A stretch of DNA of 64,000 nucleotides, from NCBI GenBank assembly GCA_963826785.1, contig CAWGYD010000001.1, forward strand, positions 608,001 to 672,000, read 5' to 3'. The translations under genes were made by a program, and so were the position numbers. Source of the stretch: an uncultured delta proteobacterium (GTDB lineage: Bacteria > Desulfobacterota > Desulfobacteria > Desulfobacterales > Desulfosalsimonadaceae). Below the pieces are notes generated by a model. That model saw only the letters and a program-made list of their open reading frames with translations, had not been told where the DNA came from and did no database searches. Within the stretch, counting starts at the first letter, position 1. Every line of letters begins with the position of its first letter. Of the stretch, positions 24,992-56,837 are shown piece by piece.

Positions 24992-25624
24992 ATGTCTTCT
25001 AAGAAAGAACTGAGCATCGCGTATATTGTCGGGATCGTGTGCATTATCGTGGGAGCGCTGTCCTACAGCGTGCTCTCGGCCAAACCGCCGGAAGAGCCCC
25101 GCCGGATCATGCTGACGGCCACCGGCGGCAATGTCCTGTTTGACCACCGGAATCACAGCGAGGCCTATGGACTGGAGTGCACCGGCTGCCATCATCCGAT
25201 CCTGGCGGGAGCGGGCGAAACAGAGGCCTGCGGCCAGTGCCACACCAAAGAGAGCGAATATGTGCCGGCGCTGGGCGAAAAGGGAAAGTTCAATCATGAC
25301 GCCCATAGCATGGATTACGGGTTGAGCTGCACCGATTGCCACCACAACTATACGGAAGGCGATCCGGGCGGACCGGAACTGTGCACGGTATGCCACCAGG
25401 CCGGAATGGGGGATGACGTCATTCCGGGCCGGAAAGAGGCCTTTCACCAGCAGTGCATCGGCTGCCACGAAGAGTTGGGTATATCGCCCGGAAAAACGGA
25501 CTGCAATGCTTGTCATGTCCCCCGGAAGCGGACCGATGCATTTCACGACCAGTGCGCGGGATGCCATGAAGAGATGGGTGCCGGGCCGGCCAAGGCGGAT
25601 TGCAAAACCTGTCACGGTTATTAA
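24992..25624 (+). CDS. Membrane-anchored octaheme cytochrome c3-family protein associated with Rnf
   Basis: N-terminal TM; 8 CxxCH (CTGCH, CGQCH, CTDCH, CTVCH, CIGCH, CNACH, CAGCH, CKTCH); c3 FxHxxH and AFH motifs. Confidence 0.92.
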   Translation: MSSKKELSIAYIVGIVCIIVGALSYSVLSAKPPEEPRRIMLTATGGNVLFDHRNHSEAYGLECTGCHHPILAGAGETEACGQCHTKESEYVPALGEKGKFNHDAHSMDYGLSCTDCHHNYTEGDPGGPELCTVCHQAGMGDDVIPGRKEAFHQQCIGCHEELGISPGKTDCNACHVPRKRTDAFHDQCAGCHEEMGAGPAKADCKTCHGY

Positions 25625-25689
25625 TTACTGCCCTTTCGGGGCAGGGCATTTTGCCGTTATTCATTCAAGCGTTTTAAAAAGGTTGATCC

Positions 25690-26979
25690 ATGATTAAGCG
25701 ATCATTTTTCGGATTTATCAAACCGAAGCTCAGGTATGAAACCATCGACGACATCCAGTCGGAACCGGTGGCCGTATCCCCCTCTTCGCGCATCATTTTG
25801 TTTTTCGATGAGAAGCTCGACTCCCAGTCGGGTGCGCTGCTGAAGGTCGGGGACCTGATCAGCCGGGGGCAGAAGCTGAAATTGTCCGCCGGATCCGATC
25901 AATATGCCATCGCCAGCCGGTCGGGACGGATCGTTGCCATCACGCCCATGATCGGGCTGATGGGCAAACCCATGACGTCGGTCGCCATCGACATTGATGA
26001 TGAGGCAAATCAACGCATGGACGAGGGGTTTAAAGAAATCTCGACTGCTCCCACACTGGAGAACGCCCGGGCGTATCTGAGCGGGCTGGCGGGCAAACCG
26101 GATCTGAGCGTTTTTGACGACCCAGAACATCCGGTCAAGTCCATCATCGTCGTGGGTGCGGACAACGATCTGCTGAGCATGACCCAACAGCATTTTGTCA
26201 AATCCGCCGTCGTCTGCATCAAGACCGGTGTGGAGATCCTGCGCAAACTGACCGGTATCCACAATGTGGTCCTGGTGGTGCCCCATCATCTGGCGCAGGT
26301 GGCGGGGTCTGCCGGCACGGTGGTCAAAACAGTGGATTCGGAATACCCTGCGGCCCACCCCCAGTTGATTCTGCGGCACATTCTGGAAGAGACATCCGGC
26401 AGCGGCACGCCGCAAGACGCACCGCAAACGGCGATGTTTACGGCTGAATCGGTCTGCGCCATCGGGGCCGCATTCAACACCGGCCAGTTGTCCTTGGACA
26501 AGCTGGTCACCTATGTTGCCAAAGACGGCGCAAAGCATCTGGTCACCGTGCCCATCGGAACCCCCTTGAAGGATATTCTCAATGCCTTCGGACACCGTCT
26601 GGATGAGGGCGATCGGGTGATTTTCGGCGGCCCCATGACCGGCGTCTCGGTATATTCCGAGGACCATCCGGTGCTGGCCGATACCAACATGATCATGGTC
26701 CAGAAAGAATCCGATATCATAGAGCGCGAAGACATCTATTGCATCAATTGCGGTGAGTGCGTCCGGATATGTCCGGCAAACATCGGCGTCAATCTGCTGA
26801 TCCGGTATCTGGAGGCGGGACTGTATGAAACAGCCGAGGAGCAGGCTGATCTGCATTCCTGCATCGAGTGCGGCCTCTGCAGTTATGTGTGTGAATCCCG
26901 GATCCCGATCTTTCAGCACATCATGCTGGCCAAGCACACGCTGGAGAAAATGAAAGCGGCGGAGGAAAACAATGCCTGA
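25690..26979 (+). CDS. rnfC: RnfC-like subunit (divergent)
   Basis: VKVGD-like LKVGD, PIGTP, GGPMTG, CINCGECVRICP and CIECGLCSYVCE; position before rnfD. Confidence 0.88.
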   Translation: MIKRSFFGFIKPKLRYETIDDIQSEPVAVSPSSRIILFFDEKLDSQSGALLKVGDLISRGQKLKLSAGSDQYAIASRSGRIVAITPMIGLMGKPMTSVAIDIDDEANQRMDEGFKEISTAPTLENARAYLSGLAGKPDLSVFDDPEHPVKSIIVVGADNDLLSMTQQHFVKSAVVCIKTGVEILRKLTGIHNVVLVVPHHLAQVAGSAGTVVKTVDSEYPAAHPQLILRHILEETSGSGTPQDAPQTAMFTAESVCAIGAAFNTGQLSLDKLVTYVAKDGAKHLVTVPIGTPLKDILNAFGHRLDEGDRVIFGGPMTGVSVYSEDHPVLADTNMIMVQKESDIIEREDIYCINCGECVRICPANIGVNLLIRYLEAGLYETAEEQADLHSCIECGLCSYVCESRIPIFQHIMLAKHTLEKMKAAEENNA

Positions 26980-27940
26980 TACTGTCAAACTGACCGTCTC
27001 GTATGCCCCGTTCTGGCACAACGGGAGCAAAATTTCGACCAAAAGCTACAACATTCTGCTTGCCGGCCTGCTTCCTGTGGCTTTCGGGATCTGGCAGTAC
27101 GGTATTGCCGCCCTTGGGGTCGTGACGCTTGCCATCGGTTCGGCTATTTTCTGGGAACTGCTGATGAATTTCATCATGCGCCGTCCGGTTTCCATCGGAG
27201 ACGGGAATGCGGCGGTGATCGGCATGGTTCTGGCCATGCTGATGCCGGCCACCACCCCCTGGTGGATCGTGGTTTTCGGAACACTGGTGGCGGTGGTCAT
27301 CGGAAAGCAGATTTTCGGCGGCATCGGCGGCAATCCGTTTAATCCGACCATCGTTGCCTTTGCCATCCTCATGCTCTCCTGGCCGCTCTATTTTGATTTC
27401 AATGCGGCCCTGGTCAATTATGAATTTTCCTTCAACCCGGTCTACCCGCTGGTGCTGGCCAAGTCCTTCGGTTCCGGGGCGGTGGCTTCCTTTAGCTTGA
27501 AAGACCTGCTGCTGGGCCATCAGGTGGGCGGCATCGGGTCCACCTTCTCCCTGGGCGTGATCGTCGCCGGGATTTACCTGATGCTCAGAGGATTCATCCG
27601 GTGGGAAATTTCGATTTCCTTCCTGATCGGGGTGATGGTGACCGCGTTTTTCTTTAACCGGGCCAACCCGGTTGCCTATGCCAGCCCCGGCTTTCATCTG
27701 CTGACCGGCTACACCCTGGTGGGGGCCTTCTTCCTGGCCACCGAGGATTCATCATCGCCGGTCAACCTGATACCGATGCTGATCTACGGAATGCTGGGCG
27801 GTGTCCTGACGGTCCTCATCCGGAACATCGGCGCCCACACGGAAGGGGTGCTCTACGCCATCCTGGTGATCAATCTGGCCAATCCCCTGATCGACAAAAT
27901 CAGACCCAAAGCAACGGGAAAGGTAATCAGTCATGCGTGA
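26972..27940 (+). CDS. rnfD: RnfD subunit
   Basis: GKQIFGGIGGNPFNP, GAFFLATEDSSSP, EGVLYAILVIN, multiple TMs. Confidence 0.93.
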   Translation: MPDTVKLTVSYAPFWHNGSKISTKSYNILLAGLLPVAFGIWQYGIAALGVVTLAIGSAIFWELLMNFIMRRPVSIGDGNAAVIGMVLAMLMPATTPWWIVVFGTLVAVVIGKQIFGGIGGNPFNPTIVAFAILMLSWPLYFDFNAALVNYEFSFNPVYPLVLAKSFGSGAVASFSLKDLLLGHQVGGIGSTFSLGVIVAGIYLMLRGFIRWEISISFLIGVMVTAFFFNRANPVAYASPGFHLLTGYTLVGAFFLATEDSSSPVNLIPMLIYGMLGGVLTVLIRNIGAHTEGVLYAILVINLANPLIDKIRPKATGKVISHA

Positions 27941-28526
27941 AATGATAAAAATGGTCATCGTCCTGACACTGCTGAGCAGTATTTCCGGCGGTCTGCTGGC
28001 GGCGGTCCGCAGCAGCACCAAAGAGCGGATCGAAGGTCAGGTGCTGGAATTCGTGCAGGGGCCGGCCATCCGGAAAATCATGGAGGGTGCCTCGAATGAT
28101 CCCATCAAAGACCGGTTTACGTTAAAGTCCGGGGATACCGAAAAGAACTTCTTTGTCGGTGTGTTCGACGGCAAGCCCAGCGTGGTGGCTTTTGAAACCT
28201 CTGCCACCGGATTCGGAGGCGAAGTGGGGATCATGGTGGGGGTGGACGTGAAAACGGACAAGATCGTCGGCATCGACGCCACCACCCTCAGTGAAAGCCC
28301 CGGCTACGGCGCCAACCTGGTGACCGACAAGGAATTCAAGAACCAGTTTAAAGGGATGCCGATTGCATCGGCGCCCAAGGTGAAAAAGGACGGCGGCGAT
28401 ATCAACGCCCTGTCCGGCGCCACCATTACCTCCCGGGCAACGGCTGCGGCGGTGACCAAAGCCGGTGAAATCTATCAGCAGTTCAAGCCCGAAATTGAAA
28501 AGCAATTAAATACGTTTTCCGGATAA
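27933..28526 (+). CDS. rnfG: RnfG subunit
   Basis: N-terminal TM, GFGG, ESPGYG, flavinylation motif LSGATITS. Confidence 0.94.
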   Translation: MREMIKMVIVLTLLSSISGGLLAAVRSSTKERIEGQVLEFVQGPAIRKIMEGASNDPIKDRFTLKSGDTEKNFFVGVFDGKPSVVAFETSATGFGGEVGIMVGVDVKTDKIVGIDATTLSESPGYGANLVTDKEFKNQFKGMPIASAPKVKKDGGDINALSGATITSRATAAAVTKAGEIYQQFKPEIEKQLNTFSG

Positions 28527-28540
28527 GGGAGATCAGTCAT

Positions 28541-29155
28541 ATGGCTAAAACAATCACGCAGGAATTTGTAAAGGGCCTTTGGGAAGAGATCCCCCCGTTT
28601 CGACTGGTCCTGGGGCTCTGTCCCACGCTGGCGGTTACCAAAACCGTGGAAAACGGCATCGGGATGGGCGTGGCCACGACATTCGTACTGGTATGTTCCA
28701 ACATCCTGGTGGCCATGCTGCGCAATGTCATACCCGCCAAGATCCGGATCGCCTGTTTCATTATCATCATCGCCACCTTCGTGACGGTGGTCGAACTGGT
28801 CATGCAGGCATTTGCCTATCCCCTGTATCTCAAGCTGGGCATCTTCATCCCCCTGATCGTGGTCAACTGTATCGTGCTGGGGCGTGCCGAAGCCTTCGCC
28901 TTTAAAAACAAGATCATGCCGTCCATCGCCGATGGTTTGGGAATCGGCCTGGGATTTACGCTGTCGCTGGCCACCCTCGGGTCGGTTCGGGAATTGTTCG
29001 GCTACGGGACCCTGACGTTCTGGGAAAAACCGGCTTTTAACCTGGCCCATATCATCCCGTCCTTTCAGCCGTTTTCTTTCATGGTGGAAGCGCCGGGGGC
29101 GTTTGTCTGCCTGGGGCTGCTTCTGTGCTTCATGAACATGGCCGGCAAAAAGTAA
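28541..29155 (+). CDS. rnfE: RnfE subunit
   Basis: LGLCPTLAVT, FIPLIVVNCIVLGRAEAFA, RELFG, PGAF. Confidence 0.97.
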   Translation: MAKTITQEFVKGLWEEIPPFRLVLGLCPTLAVTKTVENGIGMGVATTFVLVCSNILVAMLRNVIPAKIRIACFIIIIATFVTVVELVMQAFAYPLYLKLGIFIPLIVVNCIVLGRAEAFAFKNKIMPSIADGLGIGLGFTLSLATLGSVRELFGYGTLTFWEKPAFNLAHIIPSFQPFSFMVEAPGAFVCLGLLLCFMNMAGKK

Positions 29156-29201
29156 ACCGGAATTTTTTTCATCGAAAAACGATGAAACACGAGGAGAGGT
29201 T

Positions 29202-29777
29202 ATGAGCGATCTGTTCGTACTGGTTATCAGTTGCATCTTCATCAATAATATCCTGCTGGCCCAGTATCTGGGCAACTGCCCGTTTCTCGGCACATCCAAG
29301 AAAATGGAGACCGCGGTGGGCATGGCCATGGCCGTGGTTTTCGTTCTGGTTCTGGCCGGCGTGATCACCTGGATCGTCAACATTTATTTTCTCAAAAGGC
29401 TGGGGATCGAATTTCTCCAGACCATCTCCTTTATCCTGGTGATCGCATCCCTGGTCCAGTTCGTGGAGATGTTTCTGAAAAAAAGCATCCCCGCGCTGTA
29501 TGCGGGACTGGGCATTTTTCTGCCCCTGATCACCACCAACTGCGCGGTCATGGGCGTCTGTCTGATCAACATCAAGGAAGGATACACCTTTACCCAGGCC
29601 CTGATTGCCTCGTTTGCCTACGCCGTGGGTTTCGGTTTCGCCCTGATCCTGTTCACCGGGATCCGGGAGCGGATCATCCTGGCCCGGGTGCCCAAGCCGC
29701 TGCAGGACACGTCCATCGGACTGGTGACCGCCGGCCTGATTTCACTGGCGTTTTTCGCCTTTCAGGGAATGGTCTGA
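29202..29777 (+). CDS. rnfA: RnfA subunit
   Basis: LGNCPFLG, IASLVQFVEM, FLPLITTNCAVMG. Confidence 0.97.
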   Translation: MSDLFVLVISCIFINNILLAQYLGNCPFLGTSKKMETAVGMAMAVVFVLVLAGVITWIVNIYFLKRLGIEFLQTISFILVIASLVQFVEMFLKKSIPALYAGLGIFLPLITTNCAVMGVCLINIKEGYTFTQALIASFAYAVGFGFALILFTGIRERIILARVPKPLQDTSIGLVTAGLISLAFFAFQGMV

Positions 29778-29878
29778 TCCGGGAAATCTTTGCCTTTTAT
29801 CTCTTGAATTTCCAGGGACAGCCACTATTTTCTGAGGAAATCTTCGGTTTAAAAACACATTAACGTAAAGAGGATATT

Positions 29879-31942
29879 GTGATAGAAGCCATTCTGTTTA
29901 CCTTGGGGCTGGGCGCGACTTGCGGGATTATCCTGAGTTTTGCGTCCAAAATCTTTTATGTCTATGAAGATCCCCGGATTGCACAGGTGGAAAATTTTCT
30001 GGCCGGCGCCAACTGCGGCGGCTGCGGGTTCGCAGGATGTTCGGCGGCCGCCGATTCCATTGTCAATGGCAATGCCCCGCCAAACGCCTGCATTCTGATC
30101 GGGCCTGAAAATGTGTCTGCCATCGCCGGCATCATGGGAGCCGAGGCGGGTACCGCCGAACCCTTGAAATCTGTAAATACGTGTGCAGGCGGAAACCGGG
30201 CTGCGGACCGGTTCCATTACCTGGGGGTGGAATCGTGCAAAGCGCTTTCCGCCTTGTACGGCGGAAAACGGGAGTGCAACATCGGGTGCCTCGGTTTCGG
30301 CGACTGCGTGAAAGCCTGCGGCTTTGACGCCATTGCCATCGGTGCGGACGGCTTCCCTGTGGTCGATCGGGAAAAATGTGTGGGATGCGGTGCCTGCGAA
30401 AAGGCCTGCCCCAAGACGATCCTGGAAGTGCAGTCCATGTCCGCCCGTCTGCTCCATTTGAATGCGCAAAACGATGCGCTGGCGCCCTGCGCCCAGACCT
30501 GCCCGGCGGAAATCGATATTCCCCGGTACATCGACCATATCCGCAAGGGAGAATACGATGCGGCAGTGGATACCATCCGGGAGAGAAACCCCTTGCTGCT
30601 GGCCTGCGGCCGGGTGTGCCCCCATCCCTGTGAAAGCTTCTGCCGCCGCAGCATCGAGGATGAACCGGTTTCCATCAATCAGTTGAAGCGCTTTGTCGCC
30701 GATTACGAAATGAATTCGGGCAAGCGCATCCCCATTCCCTGCGCGCCGGACACCGGAAAACGGGTGGCTGTCATCGGCGGCGGCCCCGCTGGACTGAGTT
30801 GCGCCTACTTTCTGAGACGGGCCGGCCACCATCCCGAAATATTTGAAGCCATGCCCAAGCTGGGCGGCATGCTGCGCTATGGAATTCCCGAGTACCGGCT
30901 TCCCAAGAAAACCCTGGACTGGGAAATCCAGGGCATCCTGAACCTGGGGATCGATCATCATACCAATGTGCGCCTGGGCGTTGATTTTGATTTCAAGTCG
31001 CTGATCGCGGCCGGATTCGACGCGGTATTTTTCTCCATCGGCGCCTGGAACGATTACAAGCTGAATATCCCCGGCGAAGAAATGGAAGGCTGTTTTACCG
31101 GCATCAGCTTCCTGGCGAAAATGGGGAACAACGAGCCGGTACAGATCGGAAAACGGGTGGCCGTCATCGGGGGCGGCAACACCGCCATCGACTGCGCCCG
31201 GACCCTGGTGCGCAAAGGGTGTGAAAAGGTGTACCTGGTCTACCGGCGAACCCGCAAGGAAATGCCGGCCAATGAGGTGGAAATCGTCGCCGCGGATCAC
31301 GAAGGAATCGAATTCGTCTTTCTGGCCGCACCCAACCGGGTGATCGGAAACGCGGACAACCAGGTAACCGGCCTGGAATACCTGAAAATGGAACTGGGCG
31401 AACCGGACGCCAGCGGGCGCCGCCGGCCGGTGCCGGTGGAAGGTTCCGAAACCGTGCTCGATGTGGAAATGATCGTTACCGCCATCGGCCAGTCCCCGGA
31501 TATCGCGTTTAAAGGGCAGGGCGACCGCGTGGATGATCTCAAGATCACCCGATGGAATACCTTTGAGGTGGACCGGGCCACCTGCCAGACCAACGTTCCT
31601 TATATCTTTGCCGCCGGCGACTCCGCCACGGGCCCCGCCCTGGTGGTGGACGCCATCGGCGGGGGCAGGAAGGCCGCCCGCTCCATGGACCAGTTCCTGA
31701 GGGGAAAACCGGTGGCCGCTCAGCCCGACGCCATTTTGAACAAGCAGATTCCCGAAACCCTGTTCTCATCCGTTGCCGGAATCACCCCGAAGAAGCGGAC
31801 CGAGATGCCCGAGTTGCCGGTATCTGAGCGAATTCATACCTTTGAGGAAGTCGATCTGGTGATTACCGAAGCCGATGCCCGGCGAGAATCAGAAAGATGC
31901 CTGAACTGCTGCCGGCTCTGCTACAACCCGGACGCAGCCTGA
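29879..31942 (+). CDS. rnfB: RnfB fused to a GltD/NfnB-like FAD/NAD(P)H oxidoreductase
   Basis: N-terminal TM, ANCGGCGFAGC, CLGFGDCVKAC, CVGCGACEKACP; then CAQTCP, CGRVCPHPCE, GGGPAG, GGGNTAID, YRRTR, FAAGD, RCLNC. Confidence 0.93.
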   Translation: MIEAILFTLGLGATCGIILSFASKIFYVYEDPRIAQVENFLAGANCGGCGFAGCSAAADSIVNGNAPPNACILIGPENVSAIAGIMGAEAGTAEPLKSVNTCAGGNRAADRFHYLGVESCKALSALYGGKRECNIGCLGFGDCVKACGFDAIAIGADGFPVVDREKCVGCGACEKACPKTILEVQSMSARLLHLNAQNDALAPCAQTCPAEIDIPRYIDHIRKGEYDAAVDTIRERNPLLLACGRVCPHPCESFCRRSIEDEPVSINQLKRFVADYEMNSGKRIPIPCAPDTGKRVAVIGGGPAGLSCAYFLRRAGHHPEIFEAMPKLGGMLRYGIPEYRLPKKTLDWEIQGILNLGIDHHTNVRLGVDFDFKSLIAAGFDAVFFSIGAWNDYKLNIPGEEMEGCFTGISFLAKMGNNEPVQIGKRVAVIGGGNTAIDCARTLVRKGCEKVYLVYRRTRKEMPANEVEIVAADHEGIEFVFLAAPNRVIGNADNQVTGLEYLKMELGEPDASGRRRPVPVEGSETVLDVEMIVTAIGQSPDIAFKGQGDRVDDLKITRWNTFEVDRATCQTNVPYIFAAGDSATGPALVVDAIGGGRKAARSMDQFLRGKPVAAQPDAILNKQIPETLFSSVAGITPKKRTEMPELPVSERIHTFEEVDLVITEADARRESERCLNCCRLCYNPDAA

Positions 31943-31995: not shown

Positions 31996-32040
31996 AAAAA
32001 AAAGCACCTGTCGAAACATGTTTCGGCAGGTGCTTTTTTT
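31996..32040 (+). terminator. Rho-independent terminator of the rnf operon (bidirectional type)
   Basis: A-tract, gcacctgtcgaaa / tttcggcaggtgc stem, T7 tail. Confidence 0.9.
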
Positions 32041-35531: not shown

Positions 35532-37571
35532 TTACAGCAGGAACGGCACCATCAGCAGGGCCACCACGTTTAGGATCTTGATCATCGGGTTGATGGCCGG
35601 GCCGGCGGTATCCTTGTAGGGATCGCCGACGGTGTCGCCGGTTACCGCGGCCTTGTGGGCATCGCTGCCCTTGCCGCCGAAGAAACCGTCTTCAATGTAT
35701 TTCTTGGCATTATCCCAGGCAGCGCCGCCGGTGGTCATGGAGATGGCGACGAACAGACCGGTGATGATGCTGCCGATCAGCAGTCCGCCCAGGGCGACTT
35801 TGCCCAGGAGGAAGCCCACCAGAAGCGGAGCCGCTACCGGCAGCAGGGCCGGAACCAGCATTTCCTTGAGTGCAAACCGGGTCACCAGGTCCACGCAGGC
35901 GCCGTAGTCGGGTTTGGCGGTGCCTTCCATGATGCCGGGGATTTCCCGGAACTGACGGCGAACTTCGTCCACCACCGCGCCGCCGGCCTTGCCGACTGCG
36001 CTCATGGCCATCGAGCCGAAGAGGAAGGGCAGCAGGCCGCCGATGAACAGGCCGATGATGACGTTGACGTTGCTCAGGTCAAATGTGATCTTGGCAGCGC
36101 CTTCGCCACCGCGGAGAGCAAACTCCTGGGTGTAGCAGGCAAACAGAACCAGGGCGGCCAGACCGGCGGAGCCGATGGCATAACCCTTGGTGACGGCCTT
36201 GGTGGTATTGCCGACCGCATCCAGGGGATCGGTCACGGCGCGAACGGATTCATCCATTCCGGCCATTTCGGCGATGCCGCCGGCGTTGTCGGTGATGGGG
36301 CCGTAAGCGTCAATGGCAATGACCATACCCGTCATGGACAGCATGGAAACCGCGGCGATGGCGATGCCGTAAAGGCCGGCGAAATGATGGGCCAGGCCGA
36401 TGGCCAGGCAGATGGTCAGAACCGGCGCTGCGGTCGACTGAAGGCTGACGGCCAGACCGGCAATGATGTTGGTGCCGTGACCGGTGGTGGAGGCTTCGGC
36501 AATCCGCTTCACCGGGCCGAAGATGCCCGTATAGTACTCGGTGATGATAACGATCAGCACGGTGAGCACCAGACCGATCAGGGATGAATAGAAAATATTG
36601 ATCGCGGTGATGCCGTTAAAGTCCGTGATGGTTCTCATGGTGACGAAGTAAAAAGCAACAGCCGCGATAATGGCTGCGCCGAACATCCCCTTGTACAGGG
36701 CGCCCATGATGTACTCGCTTTTGCCCAGGCGGACAAAGGCGATGGCGACGATGGAGGCGATAATGGAGATGGCGCCCAGGAGCAGCGGGTAATATACGGC
36801 CATGTCATTTGCCGGGAACAAAAGGTGTCCCAGGAGCATGGCGGCCACTGTGGTCACCGCATAGGTTTCAAACAGGTCCGCTGCCATACCGGCGCAGTCG
36901 CCCACGTTGTCGCCCACGTTGTCGGCGATGGTGGCCGGGTTTCTCGGATCGTCTTCGGGAATGCCCGCTTCCACTTTTCCCACCAGGTCAGCACCGACGT
37001 CGGCGCCTTTGGTGAAGATACCGCCGCCCAGACGGGCGAAGATGGAAATCAAGCTGCCGCCGAAACCAAGAGCCACCAGCGCCAAAACCGCATCCTGCAG
37101 CGGGGTGCCGTACTTCAGCAGCAGGGTGAAGTATCCTGCCACCGAGGTCAGCGCCAGGCCCGCTACCAGCATGCCGGTGACGGAACCGCCCTTGAATGCC
37201 AGGCTCAGTCCTGCTGCCAGACCGTCCTTGGCGGCTTCAGCCGTACGCACATTGGCGATGACGGACACCCGCATGCCGATGTAGCCGGCCGCAAAAGACG
37301 CCAGCGCGCCCACCGCGAAACCGACGGCGGTTTTGGGGCCCATCGTGAAGAAAATAACCACGAAAATGACCGCGCCGACAATGCCCATGCTCTTGGCCTG
37401 ACGTTTCAGGTAGGCAATGGCGCCTTCCTGAATGGCCGAGGCGATCTGTACCATTTTTTCCGTTCCGGTGGGCTTGCCTTTGATAATGGTGGCGACCACC
37501 AGGGAATACAGGATTCCCAGGACGCCGACCAGCGTGCAAGTCAACGGAATGTTTGACAATACTTCTTGCAT
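35532..37571 (-). CDS. hppA: Membrane-bound pyrophosphatase, probably K+-independent H+-pumping
   Basis: [35 protein letters not shown] (Lys at the K+-determinant), [11 protein letters not shown]. Confidence 0.97.
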
Positions 37572-54106: not shown

Positions 54107-54595
54107 CTATCGTGCAGGGGCGCAGTTGCTGCATCCGGCGGCTGCAGTTTCTCCGGGCTGGCCTTTTTTCTTGATGCGGAGAATGACCGGCCGGTATTTG
54201 CCGTTTTTGCGGGCGTGGCGGTCCAGCAGTTTAATCAGGCCAAACGAGAACACAAAGAACATGAACCCGGATATGGCTGCCGCAGCAGAGGGATCCATGC
54301 TGTAGGCCGGTGCCATGTGGTCGCCCGCCAATGCGCCGACGATCATGGAGATGACGGGAAACATGTACAGCAGGAAGGAAAGGGAGAGCAGTTGTCCGGT
54401 TTTAAAGGATAAAACCACACTGTCGCCCACCTGGGCGTGAATCGGATTTTCGGCTTCAAACTCCATTTCCCGGCCGCCGCCCATGCTGTGGCAGGTCTCC
54501 TTCTCGGAGCATCCATCACATGCGGTCGCCCGCTGGGTTTTCACCGTGGCCAGATCATGGTTCAATCCGGTAATCATTCCAATTTCGGTTGCCAA
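54107..54595 (-). CDS. rseC: RseC/MucC-family membrane protein
   Basis: ACDGC....C motif, AQVGDSV, LYMFP, two TMs. Confidence 0.85.
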   Translation of the reverse strand: MATEIGMITGLNHDLATVKTQRATACDGCSEKETCHSMGGGREMEFEAENPIHAQVGDSVVLSFKTGQLLSLSFLLYMFPVISMIVGALAGDHMAPAYSMDPSAAAAISGFMFFVFSFGLIKLLDRHARKNGKYRPVILRIKKKGQPGETAAAGCSNCAPAR

Positions 54596-54761: not shown

Positions 54762-56837
54762 TCAGGAGGCCATTTTTTCGGATATCGAATGTTCAGAATA
54801 GCAGACCAGTCCGCATTGCAGGCAGCGGTCGGCTTCTTTTTTGGCCTTTTCCCGATCAAATCCCAGCTCGATTTCCGGACACTGGGCGGAAATATCACTG
54901 ACATTGCACAAGGGCATGATCTGCCGGGCAGAAGCACTGATCTGCTCTATATGGCTGACATTCTGAACCACCGTTTCGGAGGTGACCACCTTTTCGGAAA
55001 GTTCCGGCTCGATGCCGTACATGATCTGATGGGCGGATGCCGCTGCCCGCCTGCCGGCGGCGATGGCCCGGATGGCTGCGCTGAAATCGGTGACCGCGTC
55101 TGCTTCGGACAGAAATCCTTCCTTTAAACCAATGGCCGGATTTTTATAGGGGGAAACAGCCCGCCATTGCACCGGGCCGGCAGCGGATTCGGCTTGGGTT
55201 TGCCCTTCCGCCTCGGTTTCGGCCTTGATCGGGGTGAAAATCAGTTCGGGGAGCCGTCCGGAGTCGAGAATCAGGGTGCCGGCGCTGATTTCCTCGGATT
55301 CCTGAGTGGCCAGATTCCGGGTTTCGATACGGGTCAGGGCATCGTCTGTGCCGGAAATCCCGGTGATGATGGTGTCAAACCGCAGACGGACACCGTCTGC
55401 CTGGAGTTTGTTAATGGTTTGCGCATCGATTGTGCTTTGTGCCATGGAGCGGCGGGAAACGACCGTTATGCCGTCGGCGCCCAGTTTTCGGCAGATGTTG
55501 ACCGCATCAACGGTCATGGGGCCGCTTTCGGCCAATACCACGTCTTTGGCCATATGGAGGTGGTGACGGTTCTCCATGCCGGACCGGATCAGGTCAATGA
55601 GCAGCAGGGTTCCGGGGATTGCTTCTTCAATGGGGGCATCCTTGAGTCGTTCGACCCGGCTGTCCCAACCGCCGGAAGCCAGCAGGATGGCCTCTGCGCC
55701 GCCGGCCAGCAATGACGAGACGGTAAAATCGACTCCCATGGTCTGGTTAAACCGGGCCTCTACGCCCATCTCCAGGATACCGTCGATGTCCCAGTCCAGG
55801 ATATCTCCCGGAAGCCGGTTTCGGGCGATGGCGGTGCGCAGCAGACCGCCCAGCCGGGAAGTGGCTTCATACACGGTGGGGGAATGACCCAGCCGTGCGG
55901 CGAAAAATGCCGCGGAAAGGCCCTCCACCCCGCCGCCGACAACGGCGATTTTTCGGCCGGTGTCCGGGGCCTTGTAGGGCTGTATCCGGTCGTTCTGCTG
56001 TCTTTCATAGTCGGCGGCAAACCGTTTCAGGTAGTTGATCGCCACGGGTTCGTCCACCAGGTTGCGGCGGCATTCGTTCTCGCAGGGTCGGGGGCAGATG
56101 CGGCCGATCACAGTGGGGAAGGGGTTGCGCTCCTTGATGACCTGGACCGACTTGTGGTAATCCCCCAGAGAAATCTGGCGGATGTATTCAGATATATTGA
56201 TTCCCGCCGGGCAGGCGCGCTGGCAGGGGGTGGTGCAGTCTTCGGTGGTGTACTCCTTCAGGATGCGCCGGGTGACAGAGGAAAGGGTGATGATGTTCTT
56301 GGGGCAGACCCGTTCACAGGTCCCGCAGCCGGTACATTTGACTTCATCAACTTGCGGAAGGCCGTCTTCTCCCATGACAATGGCGTCAAAGGGACAGGCC
56401 CTGGCGCATGATCCCAGGCCCAGGCATCCGATATGGCAGTGCTTCATTCCGCCATAGAGCATGGCGGCCGCCTGGCAGCTGCCCAGCCCGGCGTAGGTAT
56501 ATTTAAGAGCGGCGTCTTTGACCCCGTAGGTGCACCCCGGGCGGGCAATATCCGGCTCCCGGGCCTCGATGGACACACCCATGACCGATGCAATGGCCAC
56601 CGCGAGATCCGCGCTGCCCGCCACACAGGATGAAGGGGAAGATTTCCCCGTGGCGATGGCTTCCGCATTGGCGCCGCAGCCCGGGTATCCGCACCCGCCG
56701 CAGTTGGCGCCTGGAAGAAGGCCATCGATTGCCTCGACCAGTGGATCCACATAGACATAAAACACTTTGGACGCAAGGGCCAGGCTGATGCCGATGATCA
56801 GACCCAGCGCCCCCATCATGAAAACGGATTCCAGCAT
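54762..56837 (-). CDS. Second RnfB-GltD-like fusion with a degenerate oxidoreductase module
   Basis: TM, ANCGGCGYPGC, CLGLGSCARACP, CTGCGTCERVCP, CQRACP, GRICPRPCE, terminal RCLQC; co-linear with 29879-31942. Confidence 0.9.
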   Translation of the reverse strand: MLESVFMMGALGLIIGISLALASKVFYVYVDPLVEAIDGLLPGANCGGCGYPGCGANAEAIATGKSSPSSCVAGSADLAVAIASVMGVSIEAREPDIARPGCTYGVKDAALKYTYAGLGSCQAAAMLYGGMKHCHIGCLGLGSCARACPFDAIVMGEDGLPQVDEVKCTGCGTCERVCPKNIITLSSVTRRILKEYTTEDCTTPCQRACPAGINISEYIRQISLGDYHKSVQVIKERNPFPTVIGRICPRPCENECRRNLVDEPVAINYLKRFAADYERQQNDRIQPYKAPDTGRKIAVVGGGVEGLSAAFFAARLGHSPTVYEATSRLGGLLRTAIARNRLPGDILDWDIDGILEMGVEARFNQTMGVDFTVSSLLAGGAEAILLASGGWDSRVERLKDAPIEEAIPGTLLLIDLIRSGMENRHHLHMAKDVVLAESGPMTVDAVNICRKLGADGITVVSRRSMAQSTIDAQTINKLQADGVRLRFDTIITGISGTDDALTRIETRNLATQESEEISAGTLILDSGRLPELIFTPIKAETEAEGQTQAESAAGPVQWRAVSPYKNPAIGLKEGFLSEADAVTDFSAAIRAIAAGRRAAASAHQIMYGIEPELSEKVVTSETVVQNVSHIEQISASARQIMPLCNVSDISAQCPEIELGFDREKAKKEADRCLQCGLVCYSEHSISEKMAS

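Follow-up and report, generated by a model that had tools for sequence, protein, structure and literature searches.

A 64,000-nucleotide stretch from an uncultured delta proteobacterium of the Desulfosalsimonadaceae (contig CAWGYD010000001.1, positions 608,001 to 672,000; the window) carries, between window positions 24992 and 31942, seven intact open reading frames (ORFs) on the forward strand that encode a multihaem cytochrome c and the six subunits of an Rnf complex, in the order cyt c-rnfC-D-G-E-A-B (Table 1). Intergenic gaps along the operon are 65, -8, -8, 14, 46 and 101 nt. A search of the upstream region for a sigma-70-like promoter was negative, with 4 sites against 4.5 expected. This is the sole rnf operon found in the assembly, which is 87.8% complete and includes dsrA. 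An initial annotation had placed an octahaem cytochrome c3 first in the operon and had pointed to SGAT in RnfG, Cys pairs in RnfA and RnfE, and four nucleotide-binding motifs in RnfB; we recovered every one of them. The cytochrome has eight CxxCH motifs, eight further His and an N-terminal hydrophobic helix starting at residue 9, and one tetrahaem c3 domain (about residues 97-175) is apparently nested in another (48-89 plus 178-210).

Table 1. Features of the rnf locus and of a second rnfB in the window (FMN, flavin mononucleotide; FAD, flavin adenine dinucleotide; NADH and NADPH, reduced nicotinamide adenine dinucleotide and its phosphate; aa, amino acids).
Feature	Position in window	Strand	Evidence
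Membrane-anchored octahaem cytochrome c3-type, 210 aa	24992..25624	+	8 CxxCH + 8 further His, PF02085, hydrophobic helix
RnfC, 429 aa	25690..26979	+	No FMN/NADH motifs; both [4Fe-4S] Cys sets retained
RnfD, 322 aa	26972..27940	+	Covalent-FMN site remodelled (Y158, F130, S190, L294); N124, E258 kept; predicted cytochrome dock
RnfG, 197 aa, DVU2794-type	27933..28526	+	SGAT (T164); NF045876 247.5 bits vs cut-off 205
RnfE, 204 aa	28541..29155	+	C27, C110, R69, L105, V108, N109, E117 kept
RnfA, 191 aa	29202..29777	+	C26, C114, Q86, E89, T111, T112, N113 kept; A. woodii Y105 = F106
RnfB fused to GltD/StnC-type FAD/NADPH module (alpha type), 687 aa	29879..31942	+	Six [4Fe-4S] clusters inferred from Cys pattern
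Terminator-like hairpin, closes operon	31997..32040	+	Consensus match only
RseC/MucC-family gene, after beta rnfB	54107..54595	-	PF04246 116 bits
Second RnfB-GltD fusion (beta type), 691 aa, 35-37% identical	54762..56837	-	Fe-S Cys + first Rossmann motif kept, NADPH motifs lost

The locus is one more copy of the published Rnf2 (Tol2) type, and the remark that similar loci are known in Desulfobacteraceae is thus correct (PMC5109826, PMC11887813). The large RnfB, altered RnfC and cytochrome of the Tol2-type Rnf are described in PMC5109826, citing Woehlbrand 2016, and PMC11887813 places Rnf2 in the core genome of the Desulfobacteraceae, drawn as a link between NADH and ferredoxin, with Rnf1 assigned to the Desulfovibrionaceae. 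Rnf2 is made abundantly and constitutively (PMC11887813, PMC5109826). By published description, the complex of Desulfobacula toluolica Tol2 shares with ours a sulfate-reducing host, a cytochrome gene, an RnfB of about 700 aa with nucleotide sites and an RnfC lacking the NADH-oxidoreductase domain; it differs in its cytochrome, given as 15 kDa, where the one here carries eight haems. In their available text these descriptions do not mention loss of FMN from RnfD, docking of the cytochrome, NADPH-type motifs or a beta RnfB. Within the open full-text literature (subscription papers and supplements were outside the scope) we found no report of RnfD FMN loss in this clade, of a cytochrome-RnfD contact or of an assay of the complex.

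Compared with canonical Rnf (A. woodii 9ERI, C. tetanomorphum 7ZC6, A. vinelandii 8AHX), the six subunits, the RnfA/E Cys and Na+ residues, the RnfG FMN threonine, the N-terminal 190 residues of RnfB and the RnfC clusters are all shared. Unlike canonical Rnf, the complex lacks the RnfC FMN/NADH motifs and the RnfD FMN site, has a GltD module in place of the ferredoxin-docking domain and has gained a cytochrome.

For RnfC and RnfD we used the C. tetanomorphum and A. woodii complexes as references, with RnfD pocket residues taken from Vitt 2022 (PMC9588780). RnfC reads GLAGK-P at GMGGATFP, GADND at NxxECEP and YPAAHPQ at YPQGAEKQ; its flavin/NADH motifs score 0/3 and Complex1_51K gave no match at E 0.01. 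All eight cluster Cys are kept, as is the GGPM region; the SLBB domain, which Tol2-type RnfC is described as lacking, scores 19.9 bits here against a cut-off of 27. In RnfD, Y158 stands at the FMN threonine (T153), F130 replaces R130, S190 replaces E185 and L294 replaces S284, while at the riboflavin site N124 and the acidic E258 are kept. Between RnfG and riboflavin, electrons are relayed by the covalently bound FMN of RnfD (PMC9588780, PMC11889175), and N124 is required for riboflavin in A. woodii (PMC11889175). Alignment to the solved structures therefore bears out the loss of flavin motifs from both subunits that the initial annotation had reported, and supports the view that the flavin branch through RnfC and RnfD is broken.

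To place these losses we surveyed related operons. Within the phylum, 124 of 301 genomes gave a match in an RnfD search. From the 149 foreign matches listed we took 100, leaving out near-duplicates and the weakest matches, and added 20 operons from a family in which 40 of 61 genomes score above the RnfG_DVU2794 cut-off. The sample was thus picked by similarity, and kin within it are not independent. Loci were sorted by R130, with a tree of RnfA, RnfE and RnfG as an independent check. Among the 120 foreign loci, 68 lack both the RnfC motifs and R130, 44 have both, seven lack the RnfC motifs only and one is cut off, so that with the window 69 of 121 loci fall into the altered group. The RnfC motifs are 0/3 in all 69. 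At RnfD, R130 is present in 0/69 of these loci compared with 52/52 of those with RnfD intact, and is replaced by W, Y or F in 59/69; the FMN threonine is found in 7/69 against 52/52 and E185 in 4/69 against 52/52. Because R130 separates the two groups completely, the losses are neither chance nor the decay of a single copy. The tree, built from 102 rows after 19 were left out for missing or partial subunits, puts the 62 rows of the group on one side of a branch with a Shimodaira-Hasegawa-like approximate likelihood ratio (SH-aLRT) of 100. The combined RnfC and RnfD losses mark one clade. RnfD is as conserved as in canonical operons, while constraint on RnfC is relaxed (39-53% identity to four near relatives, compared with 60-74% in the canonical comparison set).

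Two further groups depart from this pattern. Seven loci outside the clade (L100, L112, L113, L116, L120, L122, L130) have lost the RnfC flavin motifs with the RnfD FMN site intact, and have no cytochrome gene before rnfC. Seven clade loci (L083, L086, L103, L105, L107, L109, L111) form a cytochrome-less subclade with alpha-type RnfB fusions, in which the RnfD FMN threonine is kept in 6/7; an apbE-like gene follows rnfB in L083 and L103 at least. This subclade is a possible intermediate.

Residues 1-190 of RnfB correspond to canonical RnfB and residues 180-680 to GltD-type NADPH modules, with the NfnA/StnC-type chains 9BOV, 9N5U and 8OH5 as best matches. The protein contains Pyr_redox_2 and Fer4_20 domains and the motifs GGGPAG (300), GGGNTAID (431), YRRT (455) and FAAGD (577); YRR is present in 25/25 alpha fusions, and we infer that the nucleotide is NADPH rather than NADH. 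The module stands in place of the C-terminal ferredoxin-docking domain, which argues against the entry of ferredoxin at alpha RnfB that the initial annotation had envisaged. Twenty-two Cys positions are invariant in 40/41 fusions. C200 and C678 are mutually exclusive in 41/41 (36 versus 5), an exchange that fits a linker cluster shared with C102 and C120; as independent covariation it was rejected, being one event in one subclade. The source genome also pairs this NADPH-type module with HdrA, in several HdrA-GltD fusion or neighbouring genes (G000:C1 ~62300-66400; C6 ~98500-102000 and 661600-665800).

A fusion occurs in 40/57 foreign loci of the clade whose rnfB is complete (24 alpha, 16 beta) and in 0/48 such loci outside it, with the rnfB of L034 treated as missing (a neighbouring gene on the other strand). 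The remaining 17/57 have an ordinary small polyferredoxin RnfB. The fusion thus implies loss of the RnfC and RnfD sites, but the reverse does not hold: the expected co-variation stands insofar as all 40 foreign fusions lie within the clade and fails for the 17 loci without one. Since those 17 have lost the C/D sites and kept a small RnfB, the nucleotide site did not simply move from RnfC to RnfB, as had been proposed. A single grouping of the fusion loci was rejected by the approximately unbiased (AU) test (p-AU 3e-13; 48 rows, including seven without rnfB). The idea that small-RnfB members branch first found no support, the relevant node standing at 0.0. By a hand count among the matches listed, 105/151 genomes of the window's order have an alpha-like match that scores 946 bits or more.

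The fused module resembles StnC (8OH5), the NfnA-named chain 9N5U and NfnB (4YLF, 5JCA) in having FAD and NADPH Rossmann folds and two clusters. An electron-bifurcating FAD of the NfnB kind had been suggested; it would give the pump one electron and a different acceptor the other. The NfnB fold and R340, the equivalent of the Arg hydrogen-bonded to FAD N5 in NfnB, are indeed present. With StnC, however, the module shares K270 (StnC K170; Lys in 25/25 alpha fusions, where NfnB has Glu), R340 (StnC R239) and an NADPH fold with GGGNTA and YRR, and StnC keeps the Arg without that bond and has a non-bifurcating FAD (PMC10482914). Unlike NfnB, the module has no Glu ligand at the FAD-proximal cluster and no NfnA partner: the best NF004862 score in the 87.8% complete assembly is 87.6 against a cut-off of 220, and the operon encodes neither an NfnA-family protein nor a second exit. 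The missing sequence could hold the gene for a dissociable NfnA-like partner. Because of the StnC-type Lys and the failure to find NfnA, bifurcation at this FAD is unlikely, and as an account of the whole complex we consider it very improbable. The module differs from StnC in carrying I214 at the position of C114 and in being wired to RnfB instead of a HydBC module.

On the membrane side, the cluster Cys of RnfA (C26/C114) and RnfE (C27/C110) are kept, as are the Na+ residues of Kumar 2025 that we compared, except Y105 of RnfA, which is F here and also in canonical loci. RnfG retains its FMN threonine T164 (SGAT), and an ApbE gene is present in the genome. These features support an arm from RnfB through RnfA/E to RnfG with its sodium-pump residues intact. 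According to Kumar 2025, Na+ is pumped by RnfA/E, and RnfD has a role in electron transfer only (PMC11889175), so this arm would hold the whole pump. Seven Rnf-like operons (L114, L118, L119, L121, L124, L128, L129) have RnfC and RnfD intact and no separate RnfG match; their RnfE-like protein is without its second cluster Cys, and their RnfA-like ORF is 310-342 aa long. They are possibly another variant.

In the published view of Rnf2 (PMC11887813), the complex would still join the NADH and ferredoxin pools, with the nucleotide at RnfB and ferredoxin at RnfC. RnfB does have a nucleotide site and RnfC keeps a ferredoxin-like domain. However, such a U-shaped path would have to do without the RnfD FMN. 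Moreover, the direction from RnfB through RnfA/E pumps Na+ out (PMC11889175), and a path in that direction that ends at ferredoxin would be uphill twice. In addition, 17 clade loci have neither nucleotide site. We regard this arrangement as improbable.

A multihaem gene lies directly upstream of rnfC in 53/69 clade loci and in 0/52 others, with the cytochromes of L221, L224 and L225 counted as present despite the distance filter. To determine whether cytochrome and complex might interact, we modelled RnfD, RnfG and the cytochrome as a three-chain complex, each chain with its own alignment. The cytochrome docked with a score of 0.77, compared with 0.02 for the best control and 0.00 when RnfD was swapped out; contacts agreed by at least 86% between runs, and partner predicted local distance difference test (pLDDT) values were at least 75. 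The docking mark is reached by 116/157 solved and 2/215 mismatched pairs, counts that apply only roughly to this model. In the model the cytochrome anchor helix packs against RnfD 44-60, and cytochrome residues 32-53 and 205-210 contact RnfD 139-166, the loop that has lost its former FMN threonine. The model supports, but does not show, binding, and we predict that the cytochrome is a subunit bound to RnfD where FMN was lost. The best 60 of 79 cytochrome matches in the PDB include no Rnf-linked cytochrome, and the PDB relatives of RnfD comprise only three Rnf and three Nqr sequences. The suggestion that RnfC and RnfD are structural or repurposed fares well for RnfD, as a predicted dock, and less well for features still retained (the RnfC clusters in 69/69 loci and the acidic riboflavin residue in 68/69).

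We also considered an Nqr-like NADPH:menaquinone reductase with quinone bound at RnfD beside riboflavin. A flavin input at B and a C subunit without flavin do recall NqrF and NqrA (PMC4014512, PMC12174285), and the riboflavin residues are partly kept. The quinone-pocket positions G140/G141 of NqrB, however, are A58/I59 in RnfD, the N-terminal quinone helices of NqrB are missing from RnfD, Nqr needs its NqrB FMN and the cytochrome anchor is modelled onto the helix with A58/I59. Direct quinone reduction, as the initial annotation had entertained, is therefore not borne out, and a reductase of this kind is the least probable of the readings we considered.

We propose instead, with a probability of roughly 60%, that the Rnf2-type complex is a reversible, ion-coupled NADPH:cytochrome c oxidoreductase that uses RnfD as a dock and feeds Qrc. 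Electrons from NADPH would pass through FAD to the two GltD-type [4Fe-4S] clusters of the RnfB fusion, across the putative linker cluster (C102, C120, C681, C678) to the two RnfB clusters, and by way of a mobile N-terminal cluster to the RnfA/E [2Fe-2S] cluster, where ion movement would take place. From there they would reach RnfG-FMN and a haem of the octahaem cytochrome, and then the periplasmic c3 pool, QrcABCD, menaquinone and sulfate reduction; RnfD would hold the cytochrome and would no longer be a flavin wire back to NAD+. Flow from RnfB through A/E/G to the cytochrome, a part of the initial annotation, fits an intact arm and a predicted cytochrome subunit, although its ferredoxin entry and quinone exit do not. 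The donor to Qrc in Desulfobacteraceae is given as unknown (PMC11887813, PMC5109826), and we infer that Qrc may be the sink. In D. alaskensis, ferredoxin:NAD+ ion-gradient assays failed and an rnfD mutant was milder than an rnfA mutant (PMC4841214). A parallel in gene order is the MmcA-Rnf of Methanosarcina acetivorans, also cyt-C-D-G-E-A-B, which makes no use of NAD(P) at RnfC, pumps Na+ and has a proposed exit from RnfG to the cytochrome; it differs in its ferredoxin input, methanophenazine sink and extra RnfX (PMC4023990; bioRxiv 2022.07.20.500911). For the complex studied here, the coupling ion is probably Na+.

Several points weigh against an NADPH:cytochrome c oxidoreductase. The first is energetic. 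NADPH has a potential of about -370 mV. That of menaquinone is given as -80 mV, and the drop between them must pay for both Na+ and an electrogenic Qrc; energy is tight, and the cell may therefore run the complex in reverse. The three-chain model lists no confident contact between cytochrome and RnfG and so lends no support to the electron step from RnfG to haem. Ser or Thr stands at the RnfD FMN position in 17/69 clade loci, a cytochrome gene before rnfC is missing in 16/69, and the genome is 87.8% complete. Vitt 2022 favours a Na+ channel in RnfD, and the site of Na+ passage is debated (PMC9588780). In D. alaskensis, dhcA mutants had no fitness defect save in one experiment (PMC4841214, PMC4215793), the rnfA insertion also lowered downstream expression fourfold and Rnf is reported to be H+-coupled (PMC4841214). 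Finally, our proposal does not explain why RnfC keeps its eight Cys in 69/69 loci, and RnfD its acidic riboflavin residue in 68/69 and N124 in 48/69.

These retained residues keep in play a three-way junction, in which the place of the RnfD FMN is taken by a haem, or by the FMN of RnfG moving into the vacated pocket, and electrons cross riboflavin to the RnfC clusters and on to a high-potential cytoplasmic partner. The modelled position of the C-terminal haem region of the cytochrome (205-210) on the RnfD linker would suit it, as would the existence of cytochrome-less clade members; a Thr-less RnfD-like subunit, with a pocket that the FMN of a partner may sample, has been proposed among Nqr/Rnf-like complexes (PMC11334425), and Doerries 2016 posited an RnfC partner of unknown identity. 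Set against this, the pocket gains bulky residues (the W, Y or F at R130), N124 is lost in 21/69 loci, constraint on RnfC is relaxed and, in the loci inspected, no partner gene travels with the operon. We consider the junction unlikely, though less so than the published NADH-ferredoxin arrangement.

The beta RnfB of the window (Table 1) is a candidate alternative input subunit. It and the RseC-family gene adjoin a purine nucleoside phosphorylase. We inspected 20 loci of a lower-scoring class of RnfB matches in the order: 18 encode a beta RnfB, one is alpha-like and one is masked by the overlap filter; HydB-like genes accompany 11 of them, HydC-like genes 8 and RseC 16. In L043, HydB lies directly before a beta-type operon, and the source genome has a HydC/HydB pair on another contig (C3:231795-234096, within C3:231744-234099; 60% and 70% identical). 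If bifurcation occurs at all, it would more likely enter through a beta/HydBC module than through alpha RnfB.

The Desulfovibrio dhcA-rnfCDGEABF operons resemble ours in RnfG, which here also passes the DVU2794 cut-off (NCBIfam RnfG_DVU2794). They differ in that their cytochrome usually has ten haems and that they are described as ferredoxin:NAD+ pumps (PMC4841214, PMC4215793). All 20 DVU2794-type operons in our sample nevertheless show the RnfC and RnfD losses and fall into the same A/E/G clade, with a large RnfB in 13/20 and a small one in 7/20. We tentatively extend our proposal, with more doubt than confidence, to the main Rnf clade of sulfate reducers, DVU2794-type operons included: the complex would not be a ferredoxin:NAD+ enzyme but a one-way transmembrane pump in which a cytochrome on RnfD replaces the lost FMN and the input is swappable, small RnfB taking ferredoxin, alpha RnfB NADPH, and beta RnfB working with a HydBC-type bifurcating module. 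Such a pump would supply the electrons for Qrc whose source is missing in complete oxidisers, and a cell that has alpha as well as beta subunits could connect NADH, ferredoxin and NADPH by way of its pool of periplasmic cytochromes.

Elsewhere in the genome, QrcA, QrcB and QrcD pass their cut-offs, and there are DsrMKP, two Hmc clusters and a soluble tetrahaem c3. Among NiFe hydrogenases a Vhu-like one is the sole match; neither an FeFe hydrogenase nor NqrF over cut-off was found in the 87.8% complete assembly, and the single formate dehydrogenase over cut-off has no recognisable Tat signal. The Qrc, Hmc and c3 genes, next to this set of hydrogenases and formate dehydrogenases, count in favour of our proposal. 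An ATP synthase c subunit is a double hairpin (G000:C1:152017-152751, minus strand), one hairpin of which carries a motif that we take to be of the Na+ type. A 679-aa ORF on the minus strand of the window (35532-37571) is presumably a membrane-bound pyrophosphatase-like protein, judging by its motifs. More than 15 multihaem cytochrome genes, each with 3-15 CxxCH motifs, are densely clustered at G000:C1:264587-309392, and at G000:C3:356000-370000 (L240) Qrc/ACIII-like genes adjoin a match to cbb3-type oxidase subunit I, in a sulfate reducer.

The value of these results lies in three predictions: that RnfD carries no flavin, that the cytochrome is bound to RnfD and that NADPH reduces its haems. 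If NADPH does feed the periplasmic cytochromes through this complex, the energy metabolism of these major marine oxidisers of carbon would no longer lack a donor to Qrc. The Desulfovibrio rnf mutants would then have to be read differently, and the complex would serve as a natural test of Na+ pumping by RnfA/E alone.

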